Of a stretch of 64,000 nt of DNA, positions 43,095 through 53,151 are shown in pieces. The notes beneath the pieces are model-generated. The model searched no databases, was not told the DNA's origin, and worked only from the letters and a program-made list of their open reading frames with translations. The position numbers and the translations under genes were made by a program. The stretch is from positions 28,874 to 92,873 of the forward strand of contig CANFOS010000011.1 of NCBI GenBank assembly GCA_947448735.1, read 5' to 3'. Source of the DNA: Comamonadaceae bacterium (GTDB taxonomy: Bacteria > Pseudomonadota > Gammaproteobacteria > Burkholderiales > Burkholderiaceae_C). Each line of letters begins with the position of its first letter. Within the stretch, counting starts at the first letter, position 1.

Positions 43095-43797
43095 GATTGA
43101 AGGCTTTCTCTGCAAGTTGGTCGTCTGCAGCGCGAACCGCTGCGACAAATTGACTGATCAGCTCGGGGCTTTTGATTCCCTTGGAAATCTCGACGCCCGA
43201 GCTCACATCGACAGCCAGCGTTTTACCGCGTGGCCGGACTTGCAATATGCCGTCGCCCACGTTTGCAGGTGTGAGTCCACCAGACAAAACGAGGTGAGCA
43301 TTGACGCTTGGAGGAAGGAGTGACCAATTGAATGTTTTTCCGCCGCCGCCAAAACCTTCGACATGTGCGTCTAAAAGAATGGCTTGGGCTGATTTGAAGT
43401 CGTTGGTGTATTTTACGAGATCGAAATTGAGTCGTGCGTTTGGGGTTTCTTGATTCAGCGGGATGCGCGCCGCTTTGATGAACGGCCGGGCACTCTTTTG
43501 GGCTATGTGCAGGCACTCATCGGGCGTTTCATCACCATGAAATTGCAGCAAAGCACCCGAAATACCTTGGCAGGTAGCTATTATCTCTGTAGCGGGCGCA
43601 TTGACGAAAAGCAGCACGGGCGTCACGAACGGCGGCAGCCTGGCTGCCAGCTCAGCCGCTCGTGCCGGGCTGACGTAACGGGCGCTGCTCGCATACAGCA
43701 CAAAGCCAATCGCGTCGACCCCTGCGGCTACGGCGGCGTCAACGTCCTGTTCGCGGGTCAGGCCGCAGATTTTGATTCGGGTTCTGGCTTGATTCAT
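43072..43797 (-). CDS. trpF: Phosphoribosylanthranilate isomerase
   Basis: [33 protein letters not shown]. Confidence 0.96.
43552..43594 (-). repeat. 43-bp element, inside trpF
   Basis: CGCTAC-AGAGATA-ATAGC-N20-GTGCT. Confidence 0.7.
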
Positions 43798-44588
43798 GGC
43801 AGCCAATCATAAGACGCGGACCGGGTGGGCAGGCCGTACCTTTCTTCATAAACCGGTCCCAAAAAGTACAAACCATCTGGCGAAAAGGTGGGCGCTGCGG
43901 CGTCACGCCTTTTGGCAGCCATGACGTCGGCCATCCACTCAGGCTCGCGAAAGCCCTGGCCCACCGCCACTAGGCAGCCCATGATGTTGCGAATCATGTG
44001 GTGCAAAAAGGCGTTGGCTTGAAATTCAAAGCGCCAGTACGGCGAGCCTTGCCGCTGTGTGATGTCGATTCTTTGGATGTTTTTGATGGGCGATTTGGCC
44101 TGGCACTGAGCCGCTCGAAATGAACTGAAGTCGTGTTCGCCCAGCAAATAGCTTGCTGCCTGCCGCATTTTTTCACCGTCCAGCGTGCGGTAAACCCAGC
44201 CGACGCGGCCCGCCTCTACGCTTGGCCGCACCGGAGATTCGAGCACCACGTACGCATAGCGCCGGGCAATCGCACTGCCGCGTGAGTGAAATTCATCGGG
44301 CATCACACGCGCCCACTGCACGGCGATGTCTGCGGGTAAAAAGGCGTTGGTGCCGCGCACCCAGGAGCCAGTTTCGCGTTCAATTGGAGTGTCAAAATGC
44401 ACGACCTGCATCAGGCCGTGTACGCCTGCGTCGGTGCGCCCAGCGCAATTGACGCGGATGGGCCGAGCTGCAAATTTGGCCAGAGCACCTTCCAGTTTGT
44501 CCTGCACGGTGTTGCCCGAGAGCTGGCTTTGCCAGCCCTCGTAGGCGTTGCCGTTGTAACTGATGCCCAGAGCCAGCCTCAAAGTCAA
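43794..44588 (-). CDS. truA: tRNA pseudouridine(38-40) synthase
   Basis: AGRTDAGVH, FLHHMIRNIMG. Confidence 0.97.
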   Translation of the reverse strand: MTLRLALGISYNGNAYEGWQSQLSGNTVQDKLEGALAKFAARPIRVNCAGRTDAGVHGLMQVVHFDTPIERETGSWVRGTNAFLPADIAVQWARVMPDEFHSRGSAIARRYAYVVLESPVRPSVEAGRVGWVYRTLDGEKMRQAASYLLGEHDFSSFRAAQCQAKSPIKNIQRIDITQRQGSPYWRFEFQANAFLHHMIRNIMGCLVAVGQGFREPEWMADVMAAKRRDAAAPTFSPDGLYFLGPVYEERYGLPTRSASYDWLP

Positions 44589-44606
44589 ACCAGCCTCAAA
44601 GGCCGC

Positions 44607-47189
44607 TCATGACAAGGCGTTCAGAAACGCTTGTGCTCTGGTTTTCAGGCTGCCCTGTGCCTCGGCGACGACTTCACTGGCCAGTGAACGGGCACCATCG
44701 GCGTCGCCAAGAGCACGAAATTCTTCGGCCAGCGCCAATTTGGTCTCTAGCGGGCTTTCAACGGGCGGCGACACAGGCGCTGCGGCGGTAATTGCTGGGC
44801 TTTGAGCGGCCGGTGGATTCAGGTCGAGCGACAGGGACCCCATGTCGAACTCCAGCATGCCACTGTCAGGCGCCACGGGAGCCCGGGTCATGGGCTTGCT
44901 GGCGGCCGACAGCGGGTCAACACTGAAACTCAAGCTGTTACCGCTGGGCGGTGGCGCTACAGACACCGGTTGATCGACTGTGAAATCCATCTCCAGATCT
45001 TCGAAAATCGTATCTTCAGCCACTCGCAGGGATGCTGTTGGGCCTGGCGCGTCAACCGACCCGGCTGGTCTGACAGATGGTGCCGCCGAGCCAGCCCCAT
45101 CATCGACGGCAAAGTCCAGGTCCAGGTCAAAGTCGACCGCCGAATCAGCAAAGCCTGGCGACGCAACCATCATCTGCGGCGTGGTGTCTGCAGCAAAAGA
45201 TGTGGCTGCTAACGGCATCATGTCAGCTGCTACCCGTTCGCTCTTTTGCGGCTGGCCAGCGGGCTGGTACATCGGATTGCTGGGGTCCAGGTCATGACCC
45301 ATCTCGCAGATGTAAGCCCACTGCGGACCATTGCCGTTCGTGATGGGCAACGCCTGCGCAGCAATCATTTCAAAGGCTTTGAGGTCTCGCCGTTTGGCGT
45401 AAATTTCTATCAACTTGACATGAACGGCGACACGCGAGGGGTCGGTGCGCAGGGCTTCCTTCAGGATCTCCTCGGCCTGCAAATCGCGGCCGTAGGCCAG
45501 GTAGACATCGGCTTCTGCGACCGGGTCAACATCGCCAGCTGCATCGAGCTGGTTGGGTGAATACAGCATCGATGAGTCGGCCGCCTTGCCGTCTTCGCTG
45601 GTGTCGATGCGCTGACCACCGCTGGCACCAAAAAAAGAGTCAGGTTGCAGGCGGCTTTCCAGAAAAGAGTTTTCAACAGCGGCTTCGTCTCTGCGCTTTT
45701 TGACGCGGTAAAAGCCAAAACCAGCCAGCAGCGCCAAGAGCGCACCCAGGCCGGGCAAGACCAGCGGGTTGTCGGTCAGTTCATCAATCAGGCTGTGTTC
45801 AGGGGGTGGTGGCGCGGCTACGACGGGTTTTTTAACGGCGACCGGGGTGCTGGAGGCACCTGATGGTGCGACTGGTGCGGCAGTCGTCGGTGCGGCTGAT
45901 GCGCCAGAAGCCGCGGGCGTCGGCGATGAAGCGGATGCGGTCGCTGCCGCCACTGTGCTGCTGGCAGCAGCCAGCGGGGCCGCAACGGCGGGAACGGACA
46001 GTGCGGGTACCGCCGGCACGGTCAAACCAGGAGGATTTGCAGCGGCTGATGCAGCTGCGGCAGGTGCGCCAGGCGTCAGGCCGGCTATTTTGTTCAGGTC
46101 GCCGATGTTCTTGGCCAGCTCAGCGACACGGTCGGACGCGTCTTTGGCTTGCTTGTCTCTGACTATCTTGTCTTCAGCGGCAGCCTTGCCCTGCACAGCA
46201 CCCTTTGACAGCGTCAATTTGTCGGACACTGCCGCCGCCGGAGCGCGGTCTTCTACTGTGGCCTGAACCTTGCCAGCTGACTGGCGGTTGGCGCTTTCAA
46301 CTTGCGCAGCTGGCACGCCGCCGGCCAACCTTTGCTTGAAGTCGTTGAAGTCTTTGGACTGCGCTACGATGGTTCGGGATGCCTCGGAACGAGACACTGC
46401 AGCTGCTTGTTCAGCGGACGGCAGATCTAACACGACGCCTGATTTCAGCCGGTTGACGTTGCCACCGATGAAGGCGTCCGGGTTGCTCTTGAGCAGCGCC
46501 ACCAGCATCTGGTCAAGAGAAATACTTGGGACTTTGTTTTGCCCGGCAATCTTGCCCGCGGTATCGCCTGCCTTGACCCGGACCTCTGTGAGCTGCTTCC
46601 CGGCTATGGGCGCAGGTGTGGCTGGCGCCGATCTCGGGGCTGGCGCGGCTGCGCGAGGCGTGGGCTGCGCGAGGGGTGTCACAGGTGGCGCTGTCGTGCC
46701 GGAAGAAGGTGCACTGGGCGGCGACATGATGGGTGCAGTGGGCGCAACAGCGGCCGATGCCGGCGCCTGCCGCAGATTGGGTGGGTCAAACAGCATGGTG
46801 TAGTCACGCACCACACGGCCCGACGACCAGCTTGCCTCAAGAATGAGGTCTACGAAAGGCTCTGTGACTGGACGGGAACTGCTCAGGCTGAGGAAGGACC
46901 GCCCGTCAGCACGCTTTTGCAGGTTGATCTGAATGCCCACCACGGCGGCGCTGTAGTCGAGTCCCGCAGCCTTGAAGGTGGCCGCTGTGGCGACGCCCAC
47001 GCGCAGACTGGAGGCTTCGTCAGCGCTGATTTCAGGCACCTCAATTTCAGCTCTCAGCGCCTCACCCAGAGCTGACTGGACCGTGATGCGGCCCAGTCCA
47101 AGCGCATGGGCCGAGTTGATGGAAAGGCCGCCGATCAGCGCCATCGCTGCGCCCAAGGCAGCCAAGCTCCAGCTTGAGCGGTGTGTCAT
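44607..47189 (-). CDS. fimV: FimV/HubP-type polar landmark protein
   Basis: LGRITVQSALGEALRAEI, LysM-like domain, TM helix, DPVAEADVYLAYGR, KLALAEEF C-terminus; start uncertain (47189 or 47246). Confidence 0.92.
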   Translation of the reverse strand: MTHRSSWSLAALGAAMALIGGLSINSAHALGLGRITVQSALGEALRAEIEVPEISADEASSLRVGVATAATFKAAGLDYSAAVVGIQINLQKRADGRSFLSLSSSRPVTEPFVDLILEASWSSGRVVRDYTMLFDPPNLRQAPASAAVAPTAPIMSPPSAPSSGTTAPPVTPLAQPTPRAAAPAPRSAPATPAPIAGKQLTEVRVKAGDTAGKIAGQNKVPSISLDQMLVALLKSNPDAFIGGNVNRLKSGVVLDLPSAEQAAAVSRSEASRTIVAQSKDFNDFKQRLAGGVPAAQVESANRQSAGKVQATVEDRAPAAAVSDKLTLSKGAVQGKAAAEDKIVRDKQAKDASDRVAELAKNIGDLNKIAGLTPGAPAAAASAAANPPGLTVPAVPALSVPAVAAPLAAASSTVAAATASASSPTPAASGASAAPTTAAPVAPSGASSTPVAVKKPVVAAPPPPEHSLIDELTDNPLVLPGLGALLALLAGFGFYRVKKRRDEAAVENSFLESRLQPDSFFGASGGQRIDTSEDGKAADSSMLYSPNQLDAAGDVDPVAEADVYLAYGRDLQAEEILKEALRTDPSRVAVHVKLIEIYAKRRDLKAFEMIAAQALPITNGNGPQWAYICEMGHDLDPSNPMYQPAGQPQKSERVAADMMPLAATSFAADTTPQMMVASPGFADSAVDFDLDLDFAVDDGAGSAAPSVRPAGSVDAPGPTASLRVAEDTIFEDLEMDFTVDQPVSVAPPPSGNSLSFSVDPLSAASKPMTRAPVAPDSGMLEFDMGSLSLDLNPPAAQSPAITAAAPVSPPVESPLETKLALAEEFRALGDADGARSLASEVVAEAQGSLKTRAQAFLNALS

Positions 47190-47487
47190 GGAATTTTGAG
47201 CCCCGAGTGCCCGATTGACGTGTAACTTTATTTTGCTTGAGCGCACAAAAACCTCAATGCGAATTTTTGAAAAACCAATTTAACATCAGGGTGTTAGGCT
47301 GACAAGCTAAGACTCCACTTAAGTTTTGACCCACCCTGCCAGCGGGGGCTCACACGCGGTAATTGTTGCCTATTGGCAACGTTCATTGACAATTGCTTAC
47401 GTTTTGACCTTTGTCGGTGCATTTATATCGATCTGTCACCCAGCGGTCCGATTTTCTCAAGGCGATCCCGACCTCGTGGTTCAAGCA

Positions 47488-48627
47488 TCAATCTTCCAGC
47501 AGGATGCGCAGCATGCGGCGCAATGGCTCCGCAGCGCCCCACAGCAGTTGGTCTCCCACGGTAAAGGCACCCAGGTAATCTGACCCCATGGCCAGCTTGC
47601 GCAGACGTCCCACCGGGATCGTCATCGTGCCGGTCACGGCCACGGGCGTCAGGTCTTGGGTGGTGGCTTCCCGCGTGTTGGGCACCACTTTGACCCAGGC
47701 GTTGTCTGCAGCAATCATGGTCTCGATGTCAGCCAGCGGCACGTCTTTTTTCAGCTTGAAGGTCAAGGCCTGGCTGTGGCAGCGCATCGCGCCTACACGC
47801 ACACAAAAGCCATCGACCGGTACGGCGGGCACGCCAAAACCCGCGCCTTGGCCCAGAATCTTGTTGGTCTCAGCGCCAGCTTTCCATTCTTCTTTGCTCG
47901 AACCATCACCCAAGTCTTTGTCAATCCATGGAATCAGCGAGCCGCCCAGCGGCACGCCAAAGTTGGCGGTCTCAACGGCTGACAGGCTGTGTTGCTTGGC
48001 AAGCACGCGGCGGTCGATTTCTAAAATCGCCGATTTCGGGTCGTCCAGCAGGGCTTTGACTTCACCGTTCAAGGTGCCAAATTGCGTCAGCAACTCGCGC
48101 ATGTGTTGTGCGCCGCCGCCCGACGCCGCCTGATAAGTCATGGATGTCATCCACTCGACCAAACCGGCCTTGTACAGCGCGCCCACACCCATCAGCATGC
48201 AGCTGACGGTGCAGTTGCCGCCAATCCAGTTGTTGCCACCTTTGGCCAGGGCGTTTTTGATGACCGGCAAGTTCACCGGGTCCAGAATGATGACCGCATC
48301 GTCCTTCATGCGCAGCGTCGACGCGGCGTCAATCCAGTGGCCGTTCCAGCCGGCAGCGCGCAGCTTGGGGTAGACCTCGGCTGTGTAGTCACCGCCTTGC
48401 GCGGTGATGATGATGTCGCACTTTTTCAATGCGGCAATGTCCATCGCGTCTTTCAGCGTGGTTTCGTTCTTGGCCTGCGCCGGGGCTTTTGCGCCTGCGT
48501 TGGATGTGGAAAAGAACACTGGCTCGATCAGCGCGAAGTCGTTTTCCGCGCTCATGCGGTCCATCAGCACCGAGCCGACCATGCCGCGCCAGCCGACGAG
48601 GCCGACTGTGTTTCCTGAGATTTTCAT
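47488..48627 (-). CDS. asd: Aspartate-semialdehyde dehydrogenase
   Basis: [37 protein letters not shown]. Confidence 0.98.
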
Positions 48628-48700
48628 TGGAGTTGCCCTTATCAAAAAATGATTCTTTGACCCGGCTCATCGAGCCAGCGGGCACGACGAGGCGGGCTTG

Positions 48701-48736
48701 CTAGCCTTTGGTGCCTGTCGTTTTAATTGCGTTCAT
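48701..48736 (-). CDS. Putative leader peptide MNAIKTTGTKG upstream of asd
   Basis: ATG AAC GCA ATT AAA ACG ACA GGC ACC AAA GGC TAG; enriched in aspartate-family residues; followed by a hairpin. Confidence 0.6.
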   Translation of the reverse strand: MNAIKTTGTKG

Positions 48737-48749
48737 GACCGTATTGTAA

Positions 48750-49847
48750 TCAGCCCAGAGCCTTGACCACCGCGTCACCCATCTCTCGCGTGCCGACACG
48801 GGTCGTGCCTTCGCTGTAGATGTCGGGGGTGCGCAGGCCCTGGCTGAGCACGGCGTCTACAGCCTTCTCAATCCGCGCAGCAGCCTCGTTCTGGTTCAGG
48901 CTAAAGCGCAGCATCATGGCAGCGCTCAAAATCGTGGCCAGTGGATTTGCCACGCCTTTGCCTGCAATGTCCGGCGCACTGCCGTGGCTGGGCTCATACA
49001 GGCCCTGGTTTTTGGCGTTCAGGCTGGCTGAGGGCAACATGCCGATAGAGCCGGTCAGCATGGCTGCGGCGTCAGACAAGATGTCGCCAAACATGTTGCC
49101 AGTGACCACCACATCGAATTTTTTAGGCGCCTTGACGAGTTGCATGGCCGCGTTGTCAACGTACATGTGGTCCAGCGCGACGTCGGGGTATTGCAGGCCA
49201 ATCTCGGTCACCACGTCTTTCCAGAGCTGAAAGGTCTCCAGAACGTTGGCTTTGTCAACGCTGGTGACGCGCCCGGGGCCCTGGTCAGGGCCACGTTCTG
49301 TAGCACGTTTGCGTGCCGCCTGAAAAGCGACATGTGCAATCCGCTCAATCTCGGGCCGCGAATAGCGCATGGTGTCAAAAGCTTCCTCGCTGCCGGGGAA
49401 GTGCCCGTCTACCGCCACACGCCTGCCGCGTGGCTGGCCAAAGTAAATGTCGCCGGTCAGCTCGCGGATGATCAAAATATCCAGCCCGCTGACCAATTCG
49501 CGTTTCAAGCTCGACGCATCAACCAGCTGCGGGTAGCAGATCGCCGGGCGAAAGTTGGCAAACAGGCCGAGGTTTTTACGCAGGCCCAAAATGGCCTGCT
49601 CCGGGCGCAGCGGGCGGTCGAGCGTGTCGTATTTCCAGTCGCCGACGGCACCGAAGAGCACCGCATCGGCTTCTTTGGCAAGCTTCAAGGTCGCGTCAGG
49701 CAGCGGATGGCCGAAAGCCTCGTAGGCGGCACCACCGACGAGCGCGATCTCGGTTTCAAACTTCAGGTCTAAAACCTTCAACACCTTGACCGCTTCAGCG
49801 ACGATTTCAGTGCCAATGCCGTCACCGGGCAGGATTGCGATTTTCAT
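48750..49847 (-). CDS. leuB: 3-isopropylmalate dehydrogenase
   Basis: [30 protein letters not shown]. Confidence 0.98.
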
Positions 49848-49860
49848 GGTTTAACTTCTT

Positions 49861-49903
49861 TACTATTATTTTTATAGCTGCCCATCCAGGTTTTGATTGG
49901 GCT
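49861..49903 (+). repeat. 43-bp element, leuD-leuB intergenic
   Basis: TACTAT-TATTTTT-ATAGC-N20-GGGCT. Confidence 0.8.
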
Positions 49904-49942
49904 AGCCTCATTTGGCGGGGTGAAAAGGCGAAAAATGCGAAA

Positions 49943-50593
49943 TCAAGCCGGAATCATGTGGTTCAGCCACGGTTTGGTCGCCAAGCGCTCGGCCTCGAAG
50001 GACCTGATTTTGTCACTGTGCAACAGGGTCAAACCAATGTCGTCCAGCCCATTGATCAGGCAGTATTTGCGAAACTCTTCAACGTTAAAAGGAATCTCTT
50101 CACCCTGCGGTTTCACAATCATCTGGCGTGCCAGGTCAATCGTCAGCTTGTAGCCGGGGAAGGCCAGCGCCTCTGCGAATAAAGCCGCTACTTGCGCCTC
50201 GGGCAGCACGATGGGCAGCAGGCCATTTTTAAAACTGTTGTTGAAAAAGATGTCGGCATAGCTGGGCGCAATGATGGCGCGAAAGCCGTATTGGTCGAGC
50301 GCCCAGGGTGCGTGCTCACGCGACGAGCCGCAGCCAAAATTTTTACGCGCCAGCAGCACCGATGCGCCTTTGTAGCGCGGCTGGTTCAGCACAAAGTCAG
50401 GGTTGGGCTTGCGGCTTGCCGGGTCCTGGCCAGGCTCGCCTGGGTCCAGGTAGCGCCAGGCATCAAACAGGTTGGGGCCAAAACCGGTTTTGCGAATCGA
50501 CTTTAAAAACTGCTTCGGAATGATCGCGTCGGTGTCGACGTTCTCGCGGTCCATGGGAGCAACCAAGCCAGTGTGGAGTGTGAATTTTTGCAT
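49943..50593 (-). CDS. leuD: 3-isopropylmalate dehydratase small subunit
   Basis: [26 protein letters not shown]. Confidence 0.98.
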
Positions 50594-50602
50594 GATGATC
50601 TC

Positions 50603-52024
50603 TTAAACGAATCTGCGCACATCAACAAAGTGGCCGTGCACGGCCGCAGCCGCCGCCATCGCCGGGCTGACCAGATGGGTTCTCCCGCCCGCGCCCTGCC
50701 GGCCTTCAAAGTTGCGGTTGCTGGTGGATGCACAGCGCTCGCCAGGCTCCAGCTTGTCGGCGTTCATGGCCAGGCACATGCTGCAGCCCGGTTCGCGCCA
50801 CTCAAAGCCTGCAGCCTTGAAGATCACGTCCAGGCCTTCACGCTCGGCTTGTTCTTTGACCAAGCCTGAGCCCGGCACAACGAGTGCCAGCTTGATGTTT
50901 TTGGCGACCTTTTGGCCAATTTTCTTCACCACAGCGGCGGCTTCGCGCATGTCTTCAATCCGGCTGTTGGTGCAGCTGCCGATGAAGACCTTGTCCACGT
51001 ACAAATCATTCAGGGCCTTGCCCGGCTGCAGGTTCATGTAAGTCAGGGCGCGCTCAATCGCATCGCGCTTGTTGGCGTCTTTTTCCTTGTCAGGGTCGGG
51101 CACGATGTCGTTGATGGACAGCACCATCTCTGGCGAGGTGCCCCAGGTCACCTGCGGCAAGATTTGGCTGGCGTCCAGCTCAACCACTTTGTCAAACACC
51201 GCGTTGGCATCTGACTGCAGGGTTGACCAGTAGCGCATCGCCAGGTCCCATTCCACCCCCGTGGGTGACAACAAGCGGCCTTTGCAGTAATCCAGTGTTT
51301 TTTGGTCCACTGCCACCAAGCCAGCGCGTGCACCCGCTTCAATCGCCATGTTGCAGACCGTCATGCGGCCTTCCATGCTGAGGGCCCGAATGGCAGCGCC
51401 TGCAAACTCAATCGTGTAGCCGGTGCCGCCCGCTGTGCCAATTTTGCCAATGATGGCCAGCACGATGTCTTTGCCAGTGCAACCTTTTGGCAGCGTGCCT
51501 TCGACCTTGATGAGCAGGTTTTTGGCTTTTTTGGCCAGCAGCGTGTTGGTGGCCAGCACGTGCTCGACCTCGCTGGTGCCAATGCCGTGAGCCAGTGCGC
51601 CAAAGGCGCCGTGGGTTGACGTGTGCGAGTCACCGCAGACCACCGTCATGCCTGGCAGCGTCGCGCCGTTTTCAGGGCCTATCACATGCACGATGCCCTG
51701 GCGTTTTGACAGGAAGGGGAAGAACGCCGCAGCGCCGTGCTCCTTGATGTTCGCGTCGAGTGTGGTGATCTGCTCTTTGCTCACCAGGTCGGTGATGCCG
51801 TCGTAGCCCAGCTCCCATCCGGTGGTGGGGGTGTTGTGGTCGGCTGTCGCCACAATCGAGCTGATGCGCCAGACTTTGCGTTTGGCTTCACGCAGGCCTT
51901 CGAAGGCTTGCGGGCTGGTGACTTCGTGCACCAGGTGGCGGTCAATGTAAAGGATGGAGGTGCCGTCTTCCTCGGTGTGGATGACGTGCTCGTCCCAGAT
52001 TTTGTCGTAGAGTGTTTTTGCCAT
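50603..52024 (-). CDS. leuC: 3-isopropylmalate dehydratase large subunit
   Basis: [29 protein letters not shown]. Confidence 0.99.
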
Positions 52025-52049
52025 ATTTTTCTTTCAAGAATGTCTGATT

Positions 52050-52976
52050 TTAAGTGTCTTGGTCTGCGGTCAGGTGCTCAACCAGAAGTCGCGCCGTGAC
52101 CGGCAGGGTTGAAAAGTCCCGCGCCACCAGATGGATGCGCCGCAATGCCCAGTCGTCCAGCAGCTCAATCGACGCCAGCTCGCCCACGCCATTCATCAGC
52201 TCAAAGGCGCGTTGCGGCATCACGCCCACACCCAGGCCGTTGTGAATCATCCGGCACACGGCGTCCAGGCTGGTCACGTGAATACGCAGTTTGATCGTGC
52301 GCCCAACGGCGGCGGCCGCCTGCTGCATGGCGATGTAAATCGAGCTGTTGGTGTGCAGGCCGACCTGGTCGTAGTCTAGCGATGCTTCAAAATAAATAGC
52401 TGCTTGTTCAGATAAAACATGGCCTCTGGGCACAATCAGTACCAGCTTGTCGGTCCGGTAGGGCAAACTTTGCAGCTCGCCCACGCCGTCAGCGACGTTG
52501 CAAATGCCCAGATCCGCAGCACCCTCCGCCACGGCCCTGACGATCTCGGTGCTCAGGTGCTCTTCCAGGTCAATTTTGACTTCTGGGTGGGTGCGGATGA
52601 ACGCGCCCAGGTCTTCCGGCAAAAACTGGACGATCGCCGAAATGCTGGCGTGCACACGGACATGGCCGCGCACACCGTCGGCGTACTCGCTCAGTTCGCC
52701 TTGCATTTTCTCCAGGCTGAACAGCACTGAGCGCGCATGGTGCAACAGACTTTCGCCTGCCGGCGTCAGGCCCACGCCGCGCGTATGGCGGTAGAGCAGG
52801 GCCGTGCCCAGAGTCGCTTCCAGATCGCTCAGCCGTTTGCTGACCGCCGACGCCGCAATAAATTCCCGCTCGGCAGCCTTGCCAATGCTGCCCAGCTCGC
52901 ACACCGCGACAAAGAGCTGAAGCGAGGTCAGGTCGATGCGGCGGGCAAAGTTGCGTTCTGAGCTTTTGAGGGTCAT
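52050..52976 (-). CDS. LysR-family transcriptional regulator
   Basis: HTH (LQLFVAVCELGSI...SAVSKRLSDLE), LysR substrate domain; start approximate. Confidence 0.93.
   Translation of the reverse strand: MTLKSSERNFARRIDLTSLQLFVAVCELGSIGKAAEREFIAASAVSKRLSDLEATLGTALLYRHTRGVGLTPAGESLLHHARSVLFSLEKMQGELSEYADGVRGHVRVHASISAIVQFLPEDLGAFIRTHPEVKIDLEEHLSTEIVRAVAEGAADLGICNVADGVGELQSLPYRTDKLVLIVPRGHVLSEQAAIYFEASLDYDQVGLHTNSSIYIAMQQAAAAVGRTIKLRIHVTSLDAVCRMIHNGLGVGVMPQRAFELMNGVGELASIELLDDWALRRIHLVARDFSTLPVTARLLVEHLTADQDT
52383..52425 (+). repeat. 43-bp element, inside the LysR gene
   Basis: TGCTTC-AAAATAA-ATAGC-N20-GGCCT. Confidence 0.8.
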
Positions 52977-53151
52977 GAGGCTTGAATGCATCGTCAAACA
53001 CGATGAGAGCTCATTTTGACTTACGCGAAACCTAAAGGCCATCGCCTTTCGCGATGTCGGACGTGCCCAAAACCGCTGCTCTTGAACGATCAGGTCAAAA
53101 ATCTAGGGTTTTAAACCAAAAAGACCTTTTTCAGCTGTGTTTTAGGGCTTT

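Follow-up and report, generated by a model that had tools for sequence, protein, structure and literature searches.

How can the level of a single enzyme be matched to the demand for several end products at once? This question is raised by the window analyzed here, a 64,000-nt stretch of DNA from a Comamonadaceae bacterium, in which a very short open reading frame (ORF) on the minus strand separates leuB from asd. Asd is the step shared by the synthesis of Lys, Thr, Met, Ile, and diaminopimelate, and to our knowledge the matching of its level to these products is poorly understood outside E. coli. A leader of mixed codons upstream of asd would be a simple answer, as a shortage of any one of the amino acids would stall the ribosome. 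The 11-codon ORF, encoding MNAIKTTGTKG, contains 3 Thr, 2 Lys, 1 Ile, and 1 Asn, and a first-pass annotation of the window had proposed that it is a leader peptide that senses Thr, Lys, and Ile and thereby regulates asd. The ORF is present as described, and comparative evidence supports the proposed role: judging from the sequences of related loci, a translated Thr/Lys/Ile sensor very likely controls asd in cis. The whole analysis is based on computational sequence comparison, folding, and database and literature searches. In the following sections, we describe the conservation of the sensor, the RNA element that adjoins it, the switch that the two are predicted to form, and the alternatives that have to be weighed against it.

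Conservation of the probable sensor and its RNA element upstream of asd

A genome scan with the Asd protein yielded the 80 nearest loci, which belong to Comamonadaceae and the Rubrivivax/Ideonella/Roseateles group, with Polaromonas-like loci as the nearest relatives of the window locus. The stretch from the upstream gene to asd was then compared among these 80 genome loci and about 25 metagenome loci. Counting the window, an RNA element was found before asd in 73 of 81 loci, and a coding stretch rich in Thr, Lys, and Ile or occasionally Met (T/K/I(M); hereafter the sensor) accompanies it in every case (73 of 73), so the conservation of peptide composition upstream of asd, which the first-pass annotation had suggested as a check, was indeed observed. 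The last nine codons of the sensor contain on average 7.3 T/K/I(M) codons (minimum 4), versus 2.4 in a control window 20 codons upstream, and the overall composition across the 73 loci is 41% T, 22% K, and 17% I. In every element-bearing locus the sensor stretch ends 70-155 nt (mostly 70-95 nt) before the asd ATG, and the stretch from its stop codon to this ATG is conserved in sequence. The 8 loci lacking the element have ordinary LeuB ends, with at most three T/K/I residues, and spacers of 16-51 nt.

The sensor exists either as a standalone ORF (28 of the 73 loci) or as a tail of LeuB (45 loci). The standalone form, to which the window belongs, is a small ORF of 11-38 codons that starts 5-10 nt past a -10 box. 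About one third of the loci have an ORF of 31-38 codons with the nearly invariant end (I/S/T)TKTTTIKG-stop, and shorter leaders of 11-19 codons ending in KTTGTKG are found in the window and in L001-L004 and L007, with insertions and deletions in multiples of 3; by sequence comparison, the window peptide is a shortened version of the 31-38-codon leader ending in ...TKTTTIKG. In the LeuB-tail form, LeuB is extended by 6-14 residues (e.g., ...AAITKKTITG*, ITKTITKG*, ITKTTIKG*, ITGKTITTKT*, TSTTTITKTTS*, and TGTTTKTMTG*), and the sequence of the RNA element follows directly after the leuB stop. Past the conserved motif MGxAV, LeuB continues for 10-19 residues in tail loci, as compared with 4-7 residues where the ORF is separate and 4-10 where the element is absent. 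Five loci (L014, L032, L033, L043, and L055) have leader, element, and asd but no upstream leuB; therefore, the leader-element unit belongs to asd rather than to leuB. Evidently, the sensor has switched during evolution between being the tail of an enzyme gene and standing alone as a mini-ORF, and the layout of the window (stop, 13 nt, ATG, 10 codons) looks like an intermediate between the two forms. Furthermore, a contig of run X31 matches L032 from position 2751 on and carries unrelated sequence before it. The shared block thus starts approximately 18 nt ahead of the -10 box, which would suit a joint movement of promoter, leader, element, and asd as one unit.

The association with asd was also examined with methods of different scope. 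A covariance model of the element (described below) detected exactly one copy in each element-bearing locus, none in the 8 others, and one match in the 64-kb window (48619-48733, minus strand). Metagenomes were scanned with a pattern drawn from two segments of the element only (regions 2 and 3, see below), independent of asd, which returned 120 matches. A T/K/I sensor was present in 24 of them, comprising 18 standalone ORFs with TACAAT-like boxes, 5 LeuB tails, and 1 unclassified case; one further match, L156, is cut at its 5′ end, where the sensor would not be visible, and is counted beside these 24. Wherever the contig allows, asd lies 27-75 nt downstream in all sensor-bearing matches and in L156, and the remaining matches, having neither sensor nor asd, are expected chance matches. 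When the covariance model was applied to the first 100 matched metagenome loci, it gave 19 hits, all of them within the sensor-bearing group, and 81 loci were without a hit. No other gene carrying the tail or following the element was found in the genome and metagenome scans. Some of the metagenome Asd proteins are only 64-72% identical to that of the window, and therefore the family reaches beyond the 80 nearest genomes; altogether, conservation spans about 100 independent loci (genomes and metagenomes). The sensors preceding such 64-72%-identical Asd proteins include TTKTEITTG, STKTTTTKG, TLKTTTIKG, and TIKTTITKG (L104, L132, L094, and L185, respectively).

Coding signature of the probable sensor

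The sensor varies at third codon positions, a sign that it is translated. In a set of 22 distinct long leaders, codon position 1 has a column entropy of 0.0, position 2 of 1.28, and position 3 of 5.10 (summed over the last eight codons), and the codon differences comprise 478 synonymous versus 139 non-synonymous changes, the latter being confined to T, K, I, and M (ACC/ATC, AAA/ACG, and ATT/ATG). In the LeuB tails, clades differ in the order of residues and agree in their composition, and the T/K/I frame is used without exception. As judged from sequence variation, regulatory codons would be expected to show this pattern, whereas an RNA motif or a folded peptide would not. In addition, the share of AAA is 53% in sensors versus 20% in asd genes and that of ATT is 61% versus 17% (72 loci), reflecting either a preference for slower codons or an avoidance of G/C in region 1 of the RNA element.

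The long standalone leaders of the Acidovorax/Hydrogenophaga type also share an N-terminal motif in their first 10 codons, MF(A/H)A(R/H)xF(T/S)LN, followed by a variable middle part of the peptide. This motif is carried by genome loci L032, L053, L056, L070, L076, and L078, and by metagenome loci L083, L094, L099, L100, L169, L170, L180, and L185; it could reflect leaderless initiation as a constraint, an RNA element, or an effect of the nascent peptide.

Predicted initiation of the standalone ORF

The first-pass annotation had also noted a TACAAT hexamer 6 nt before the ATG, a geometry typical of a leaderless transcript, and this spacing has proved to be a conserved property. A -10-like TAnnnT hexamer precedes the in-frame ATG by 5-10 nt (mostly 6-8 nt), without a Shine-Dalgarno (SD) sequence, in 27 of the 28 standalone loci, the hexamer being TACAAT in 22, TATAAT in 4, and TATACT in 1 (L055 was counted as TATAAT, the script having scored TAATCT). 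The same arrangement, again without an SD, was found in 18 of 18 standalone metagenome loci. The one exception is L033, a nanopore metagenome-assembled genome (MAG) with an apparent frameshift. In this locus (L033:2780-2915), the leader ATG following TATAAT and the conserved ...STKTTTIKG end lie in different frames, and the break is probably a homopolymer indel of the nanopore MAG and not a real loss.

Transcript data were considered for a few loci. L032 has its leader ATG at 2783 and TATAAT at 2769-2774, and a perfect-match L032 contig from one declared transcriptomic run (X30) starts at 2802, 19 nt after the ATG, with zero depth upstream; this start is compatible with a transcription start at the leader and is not a mapped 5′ end. 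Other runs labeled 'RNA?' for L032 were set aside, as they look like DNA or other strains. Two low-depth metatranscriptome contigs (X17 record 3 and X20 record 14) span the end of leuB, the leader, and asd (window 48521-48918), stem from relatives of the window organism, carry no 5′-end information, and represent either read-through RNA or DNA contamination of the libraries.

Alternative pairings in the RNA element

The RNA element contains several segments with more than one potential partner. The first pairing is the 1:2 hairpin, which joins the last sense codon plus the first stop base to the segment just downstream (GGCU/AGCC) and is extended by pairs between the Thr codons and region 2 (ACGAC:GUCGU; ACC:GGU). 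The last sense codon co-varies with the downstream arm across clades (GGC..AGCC, AGC..AGCU, and ACC..GUCU), and the region 1:2 pair GGC:GCC of the window clade corresponds to ACC:GGU in other clades. The native codon order stabilizes this hairpin, with a mean energy of -11.0 kcal/mol versus -7.1 kcal/mol when the nine codons are shuffled (z<-1 in 57 of 72). In the second pairing, helix H1 (2:3), region 2 (family form CCGGTTCGTC; window CCCGCCTCGTC) pairs with region 3 (family form GACGAGCCGG; window GATGAGCCGGG). H1 is the RNAalifold consensus in both Comamonadaceae-type and Rubrivivax-type elements, being lengthened in the latter by UCGCC:GGCGA, and 92.3% of its cells are paired versus at most 62% when the partner is slid. 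In the third, H2, region 3 pairs with a C-rich arm (family form CCCCGGC..GCCGGGG); in L076, H2 reads CCTGG/CCAGG, and a G-to-A substitution in region 3 of this locus is accompanied by U in each of the two potential partners. H1 and H2 are mutually exclusive because region 3 is common to both, and the 1:2 hairpin likewise excludes H1, as region 2 takes part in both. Such mutually exclusive 1:2, H1, and H2 pairings are the architecture of an attenuator, as recognized here from complementarity and limited covariation. The GGCTC-GAT-GAGCC hairpin that the first-pass annotation had placed before the asd ribosome-binding site (RBS) is present and forms part of this conserved element; beyond that earlier reading, its 3′ arm has a second, longer-range partner, CCCGCCTCGTC, which turns the hairpin into part of a putative switch.

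A further complementarity links the element to asd itself. Between region 2 and H2 lies an anti-SD segment, GYGCCCU, complementary to AGGGCRC at the asd SD, and in the resulting anti-SD:SD helix (71 sequences) pairing extends to 77% of cells, and both sides have changed in 5 of 6 pairs. For the OFF structure, consisting of H2 and the anti-SD:SD helix, 85% of cells are paired in the same 71 sequences versus at most 60% when slid, 8 of 12 pairs have changed on both sides, and 0 of 500 shuffles reach the observed values. The mean duplex energies of 1:2, 2:3, H2, and anti-SD:SD are -13.5, -19.0, -14.8, and -9.9 kcal/mol, respectively, all below those of shuffles. Since MAFFT placed the C-rich arm and the GTGCGCCC-type anti-SD out of register, both were assessed in a covariance-model alignment, with the model built on H2 and the anti-SD:SD helix. 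The stop-codon hairpin was mis-registered by MAFFT and in the covariance-model alignment alike and was therefore assessed by per-sequence folding. An additional hairpin between H2 and the SD, P3, is conserved in kind and not in sequence. In the Rubrivivax/Ideonella type, P3 is replaced by a GC-rich hairpin (GGACCCC/GGGGTCC), the 5′ arm of which overlaps the 5′ arm of H2 and provides a further alternative pairing.

Proposed mechanism and predicted switch

Taking the conservation, the coding signature, the alternative complementarities, and the lack of a conserved terminator together, we infer a ribosome-mediated attenuator of asd with a translational output exerted by occlusion of the SD, and this full model, covering translation of the ORF from a leaderless start, ribosome stalling, and how and in which direction asd responds, is probably correct as far as sequence and folding predictions reach. 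The sensed signal would be charged tRNA for Thr, Lys, and Ile (occasionally Met), i.e., the end products derived from aspartate semialdehyde. The short ORF would be translated, probably from a leaderless transcript begun by the TACAAT box, and re-initiation by ribosomes that have just terminated at the leuB stop, 13 nt upstream, is a possible second route for loading the mini-ORF. When the supply is good, the ribosome would reach the stop codon and leave, allowing region 1 to re-pair with region 2; region 3 would then fold into H2, and the anti-SD TGCCC would pair with the asd SD region to close a three-way junction, keeping asd translation low. Under a shortage of Thr, Lys, or Ile, it would stall on the sensor codons and cover region 1, thereby leaving region 2 free to form H1 with region 3; H2 and the junction would be lost, the SD exposed, and asd translation increased.

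Folding of the window RNA is consistent with this scheme. In the free RNA, the combination of 1:2, H2, and anti-SD:SD (OFF) is favored over H1 by 6.0 kcal/mol, and with the footprint of a stalled ribosome placed on the Thr codons, H1 (ON) is favored by 4.8 kcal/mol. The predicted probability that the SD is unpaired is 0.20 in the free RNA, 0.65 with a ribosome on the Thr codons, and 0.21 with a ribosome at the stop codon. Across the family, masking region 1 causes a mean shift towards H1 of approximately 5 kcal/mol in standalone loci and approximately 3 kcal/mol in LeuB-tail loci. More broadly, the sensor can be viewed as a portable device with two interchangeable forms, namely a leaderless mini-ORF or a 6-14-residue T/K/I tail of LeuB, so that in the latter case ribosomes finishing leuB would sense starvation on behalf of asd, again with a translational output; the odds for and against this extended view appear about even.

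Several observations weigh against the proposed switch. Most LeuB-tail loci keep the three-way junction as their minimum-energy fold, such that equilibrium folding predicts no switch for them; kinetics, a pseudoknot, or another output may be involved in these loci. When H1 is formed, the anti-SD lies within its loop and might nevertheless pair with the SD in a pseudoknot, a type of structure ignored by the folding tools. The arms of H1 are almost invariant, with hardly any compensatory change. As for the OFF structure, the 71-sequence covariance-model alignment was fitted to the very structure tested on it, and in 19 independent metagenome sequences its covariation is not above that of shuffles, though 85% of cells pair. 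On the side of initiation, the consensus scan called no promoter in the spacer and no consistent -35 element was found, so the promoter assignment derives from the conservation of the -10 box, and read-through transcripts from leuB, which probably exist, would carry the leader ATG as an internal start without an SD.

Output of the proposed switch and alternative explanations

The first-pass annotation had found no classic U-tract terminator and had left the output as either Rho-dependent or translational. A scan for terminator-like sites found none in the window spacer (48628-48748), and there is no conserved intrinsic terminator in the family, with the usual criteria satisfied in 4 of 72 elements at non-homologous positions; consequently, the output is most likely translational, whereas the Rho-dependent part of the earlier suggestion fits less well. 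Two specific candidates were rejected: intrinsic termination at H2 or P3, where the U-run lies 10-15 nt after H2 and is the 3′ arm of P3, and Rho action via the C-rich loop, where the strand is exposed in the wrong state. It is still conceivable, albeit unlikely, that the same Thr/Lys/Ile stalling sensor acts through premature termination (Rho-dependent or non-canonical) or mRNA stability. The 1:2 / 2:3 logic is that of classical attenuators, after release of the ribosome at the leader stop, C-rich RNA (GCGCCCUCCCC) of 70-95 nt remains untranslated, the Acidovorax/Hydrogenophaga clade has a U-run after P3 (e.g., ACUGUUUUUUUAC in L070), and under a looser criterion (a hairpin with 4 or more U within the 8 nt that follow it) 18 of 72 elements qualify. 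Apart from the rarity of terminators satisfying the usual criteria, however, the C-rich stretch would be paired under plenty and exposed upon stalling, opposite to what Rho action would require, the untranslated gap offers little length for the loading of Rho, and the anti-SD:SD complementarity, with some compensatory changes, is conserved.

The remaining alternatives dispense with a sensing ribosome. The element could be a metabolite- or protein-binding RNA akin to a riboswitch, with the T/K/I codons as a by-product of a need for A/C-rich RNA, and the near invariance of TTCGTC and GACGAGCCGG over two families, beyond the needs of a plain helix, would agree with this, as would the persistence of the element with or without a separate leader ORF. 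We regard such an RNA as improbable, given that the frame is always T/K/I with third-position, synonymous variation, that the residue order of the LeuB tails shifts while composition is kept, that no Rfam family matches, and that the invariance can be explained by arms that each have to match two or three partners, with Thr codons setting limits on one of these. A slightly smaller probability still is assigned to a function of the peptide or LeuB tail itself (as a micropeptide or a degradation/localization tag), with the hairpins as an unrelated leuB terminator or mRNA stabilizer. Such a function would account for the common N-terminal motif of the long leaders and for a tail that is physically part of LeuB in 45 loci, but it would require one C-terminal motif to serve on both a free peptide of 11-38 residues and an enzyme of 360 residues. 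Moreover, this motif always ends a few nt before the RNA element and precedes asd even without leuB, the last codon co-varies with the RNA (GGC/AGC/ACC with AGCC/AGCU/GUCU), from which it follows that the amino acid is not what is kept, and a conserved terminator is lacking. Finally, a chance mini-ORF in an ordinary operon spacer might be suspected from the shortness of the ORF, the silence of the promoter scan, and the fact that 3 of 1060 ATG-initiated ORFs of 8-60 codons in the window have at least 6 T/K/I among the last 9 codons. In the window alone, the leader ORF is indeed suggestive and unusual rather than decisive, and its significance comes from conservation; about 100 conserved loci, the coding pattern, and the fixed spacing to the -10 box and the RNA element refute a chance origin on computational grounds, leaving it next to no probability.

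Comparison with known systems

The leaders thrL, trpL, hisL, leuL, ilvL, and pheL are classical ribosome-mediated transcription attenuators of Gammaproteobacteria, and thrL is rich in Thr and Ile codons. The asd leader resembles the thrL type in having a short ORF with end-product codons directly upstream of the regulated biosynthetic gene, a 1:2 hairpin over the regulatory codons and the stop region, and a competing 2:3 helix that would form upon stalling. Unlike the thrL type, it has no 3:4 terminator hairpin with a U-tract, the third alternative being an SD-sequestering junction; its codon mix of Thr, Lys, and Ile matches a branch-point enzyme; and its ORF either lacks an SD, with a -10 box 5-10 nt before the start, or forms the end of the gene for the upstream enzyme. 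No similarity to the classical leaders was found, either in sequence or in Rfam. The family thus appears to be an attenuator without a terminator. In the resistance genes of the ermC/cat type, the pause is set by an antibiotic together with a specific nascent peptide. As in these genes, a ribosome paused on the leader ORF would remodel hairpins and uncover the downstream SD, whereas the pause at the asd leader would arise from a lack of charged tRNA.

Leaderless mRNAs are uncommon in Betaproteobacteria, and the family suggests that leaderless sensory ORFs exist in this group. In mycobacteria, ribosomes stalled on leaderless polycysteine small ORFs (sORFs) block RNA structures that sequester the downstream RBS (Canestrari et al., 10.1101/834739). 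The asd family is similar in its putative leaderless sensory sORF as the first cistron, in the predicted relief of RBS sequestration by a stalled ribosome, and in its probable translational output, and differs in its occurrence in Betaproteobacteria, in its amino acids (Thr/Lys/Ile) and target gene (asd), in a stall that would free a strand for a new helix (a three-state switch) instead of merely covering the sequestering strand, and in its additional variant with the sensor in the tail of an enzyme gene. This variant has a partial counterpart in rph-pyrE of E. coli, in which pyrE expression depends on how close translation of the full-length gene rph comes to the intercistronic attenuator structure; there, uridine triphosphate (UTP) is sensed via RNA polymerase pausing and a terminator, and rph has no run of regulatory codons (PMC2784333). 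Both systems would use the 3′ end of a full-length gene in the role of a leader peptide, but the LeuB tail holds candidate regulatory codons and no conserved terminator is present. If this reading is true, the asd family would be the first in which a gene for an enzyme ends in regulatory codons that sense amino acids, as well as the first example of multivalent (Thr, Lys, and Ile) attenuation at the branch-point enzyme of the aspartate family.

The same gene is regulated in Lactobacillales by the asd RNA motif of Rfam (RF01732), and E. coli asd is reportedly under multivalent repression, with no attenuator said to appear in the sequence paper of 1982. Searches against Rfam 15, including Thr_leader and the asd motif, gave no relevant match in window 48300-49100 (E<=10) or in L005, L013, L029, L032, L037, L047, and L070 (E<=1). 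In NCBIfam, five long leader peptides matched no family at E<=10, the window peptide being too short to scan. No earlier account of such an asd leader was found in the literature search, subscription-only papers lying outside it, and the asd sensor family is widespread and apparently undescribed. As a compact system present in cultivable genera (Variovorax, Acidovorax, Polaromonas, Hydrogenophaga, and Rubrivivax), it is amenable to testing. It also carries a warning for annotation, since LeuB C-terminal extensions and unannotated ORFs of 11-38 codons at asd loci may well be regulatory, to judge from their sequences.

Features and gene neighborhood of the window locus

The features of the window locus are listed in Table 1. 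The leader ATG follows the leuB stop after 13 nt, and the end of the leader ORF is 73 nt from the asd ATG. The asd start at 48627 agrees with the N-termini of relatives, and Pfam confirms the product as Asd. The fold of the spacer has a z-score of -2.4, i.e., it is 2.4 standard deviations better than shuffles.

Table 1. Sequence and predicted RNA features between leuB and asd in the window (MFE, minimum free energy)
Feature	Position	Strand	Basis or remark
leuB stop TGA	48752-48750	-	Sequence; LeuB = Pfam Iso_dh
-10-like box TACAAT	48748-48743	-	1 base past the leuB stop, 6 nt (ACGGTC) before the leader ATG
Leader (sensor) ORF MNAIKTTGTKG + TAG	48736-48701	-	Sequence; homologous ORFs in relatives
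Leader codons ATG AAC GCA ATT AAA ACG ACA GGC ACC AAA GGC, TAG	ATG 48736-48734; TAG 48703-48701	-	
Candidate regulatory codons Ile4, Lys5, Thr6, Thr7, Thr9, Lys10		-	T/K/I = 6/10 codons
Region 1 ACGACAGGC (codons Thr6-Thr7-Gly8)	48713..48721	-	Predicted to pair with GCC-U-C-GUCGU of region 2; MFE fold
P0 hairpin GGCU[AGCA]AGCC	48695..48706	-	Stop codon in and beside the apical loop; folding
Region 2 CCCGCCTCGTC	48686..48696	-	Partner of region 1 (1:2) or region 3 (helix H1)
Anti-SD TGCCC	48680..48684	-	Complementary to GGGCA (48638-48634); MFE
H2 hairpin CTGGCTC-GAT-GAGCCGG	48662..48678	-	Includes GGCTC (48676-48672) GAT GAGCC (48668-48664)
Region 3 GATGAGCCGGG	48661..48671	-	Pairs with region 2 in H1 and with the C-rich arm in H2
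P3 A-run/U-run hairpin GUCAAAGAA-UCA-UUUUUUGAU	48641..48661	-	Directly 5′ of the SD; fold prediction
asd SD AAGGG	48640-48636	-	Sequence
asd start codon ATG	48627-48625	-	Sequence

The gene order around the locus (window 43794-53042, minus strand) is LysR-type regulator, leuC, leuD, leuB, leader, asd, fimV-like, and truA. The gap between the LysR-type gene and leuC is 25 nt, the leuD-leuB spacer measures 95 nt (49848-49942), and the fimV-like product is a protein of 879 amino acids with FimV_N and tetratricopeptide repeat (TPR) domains.

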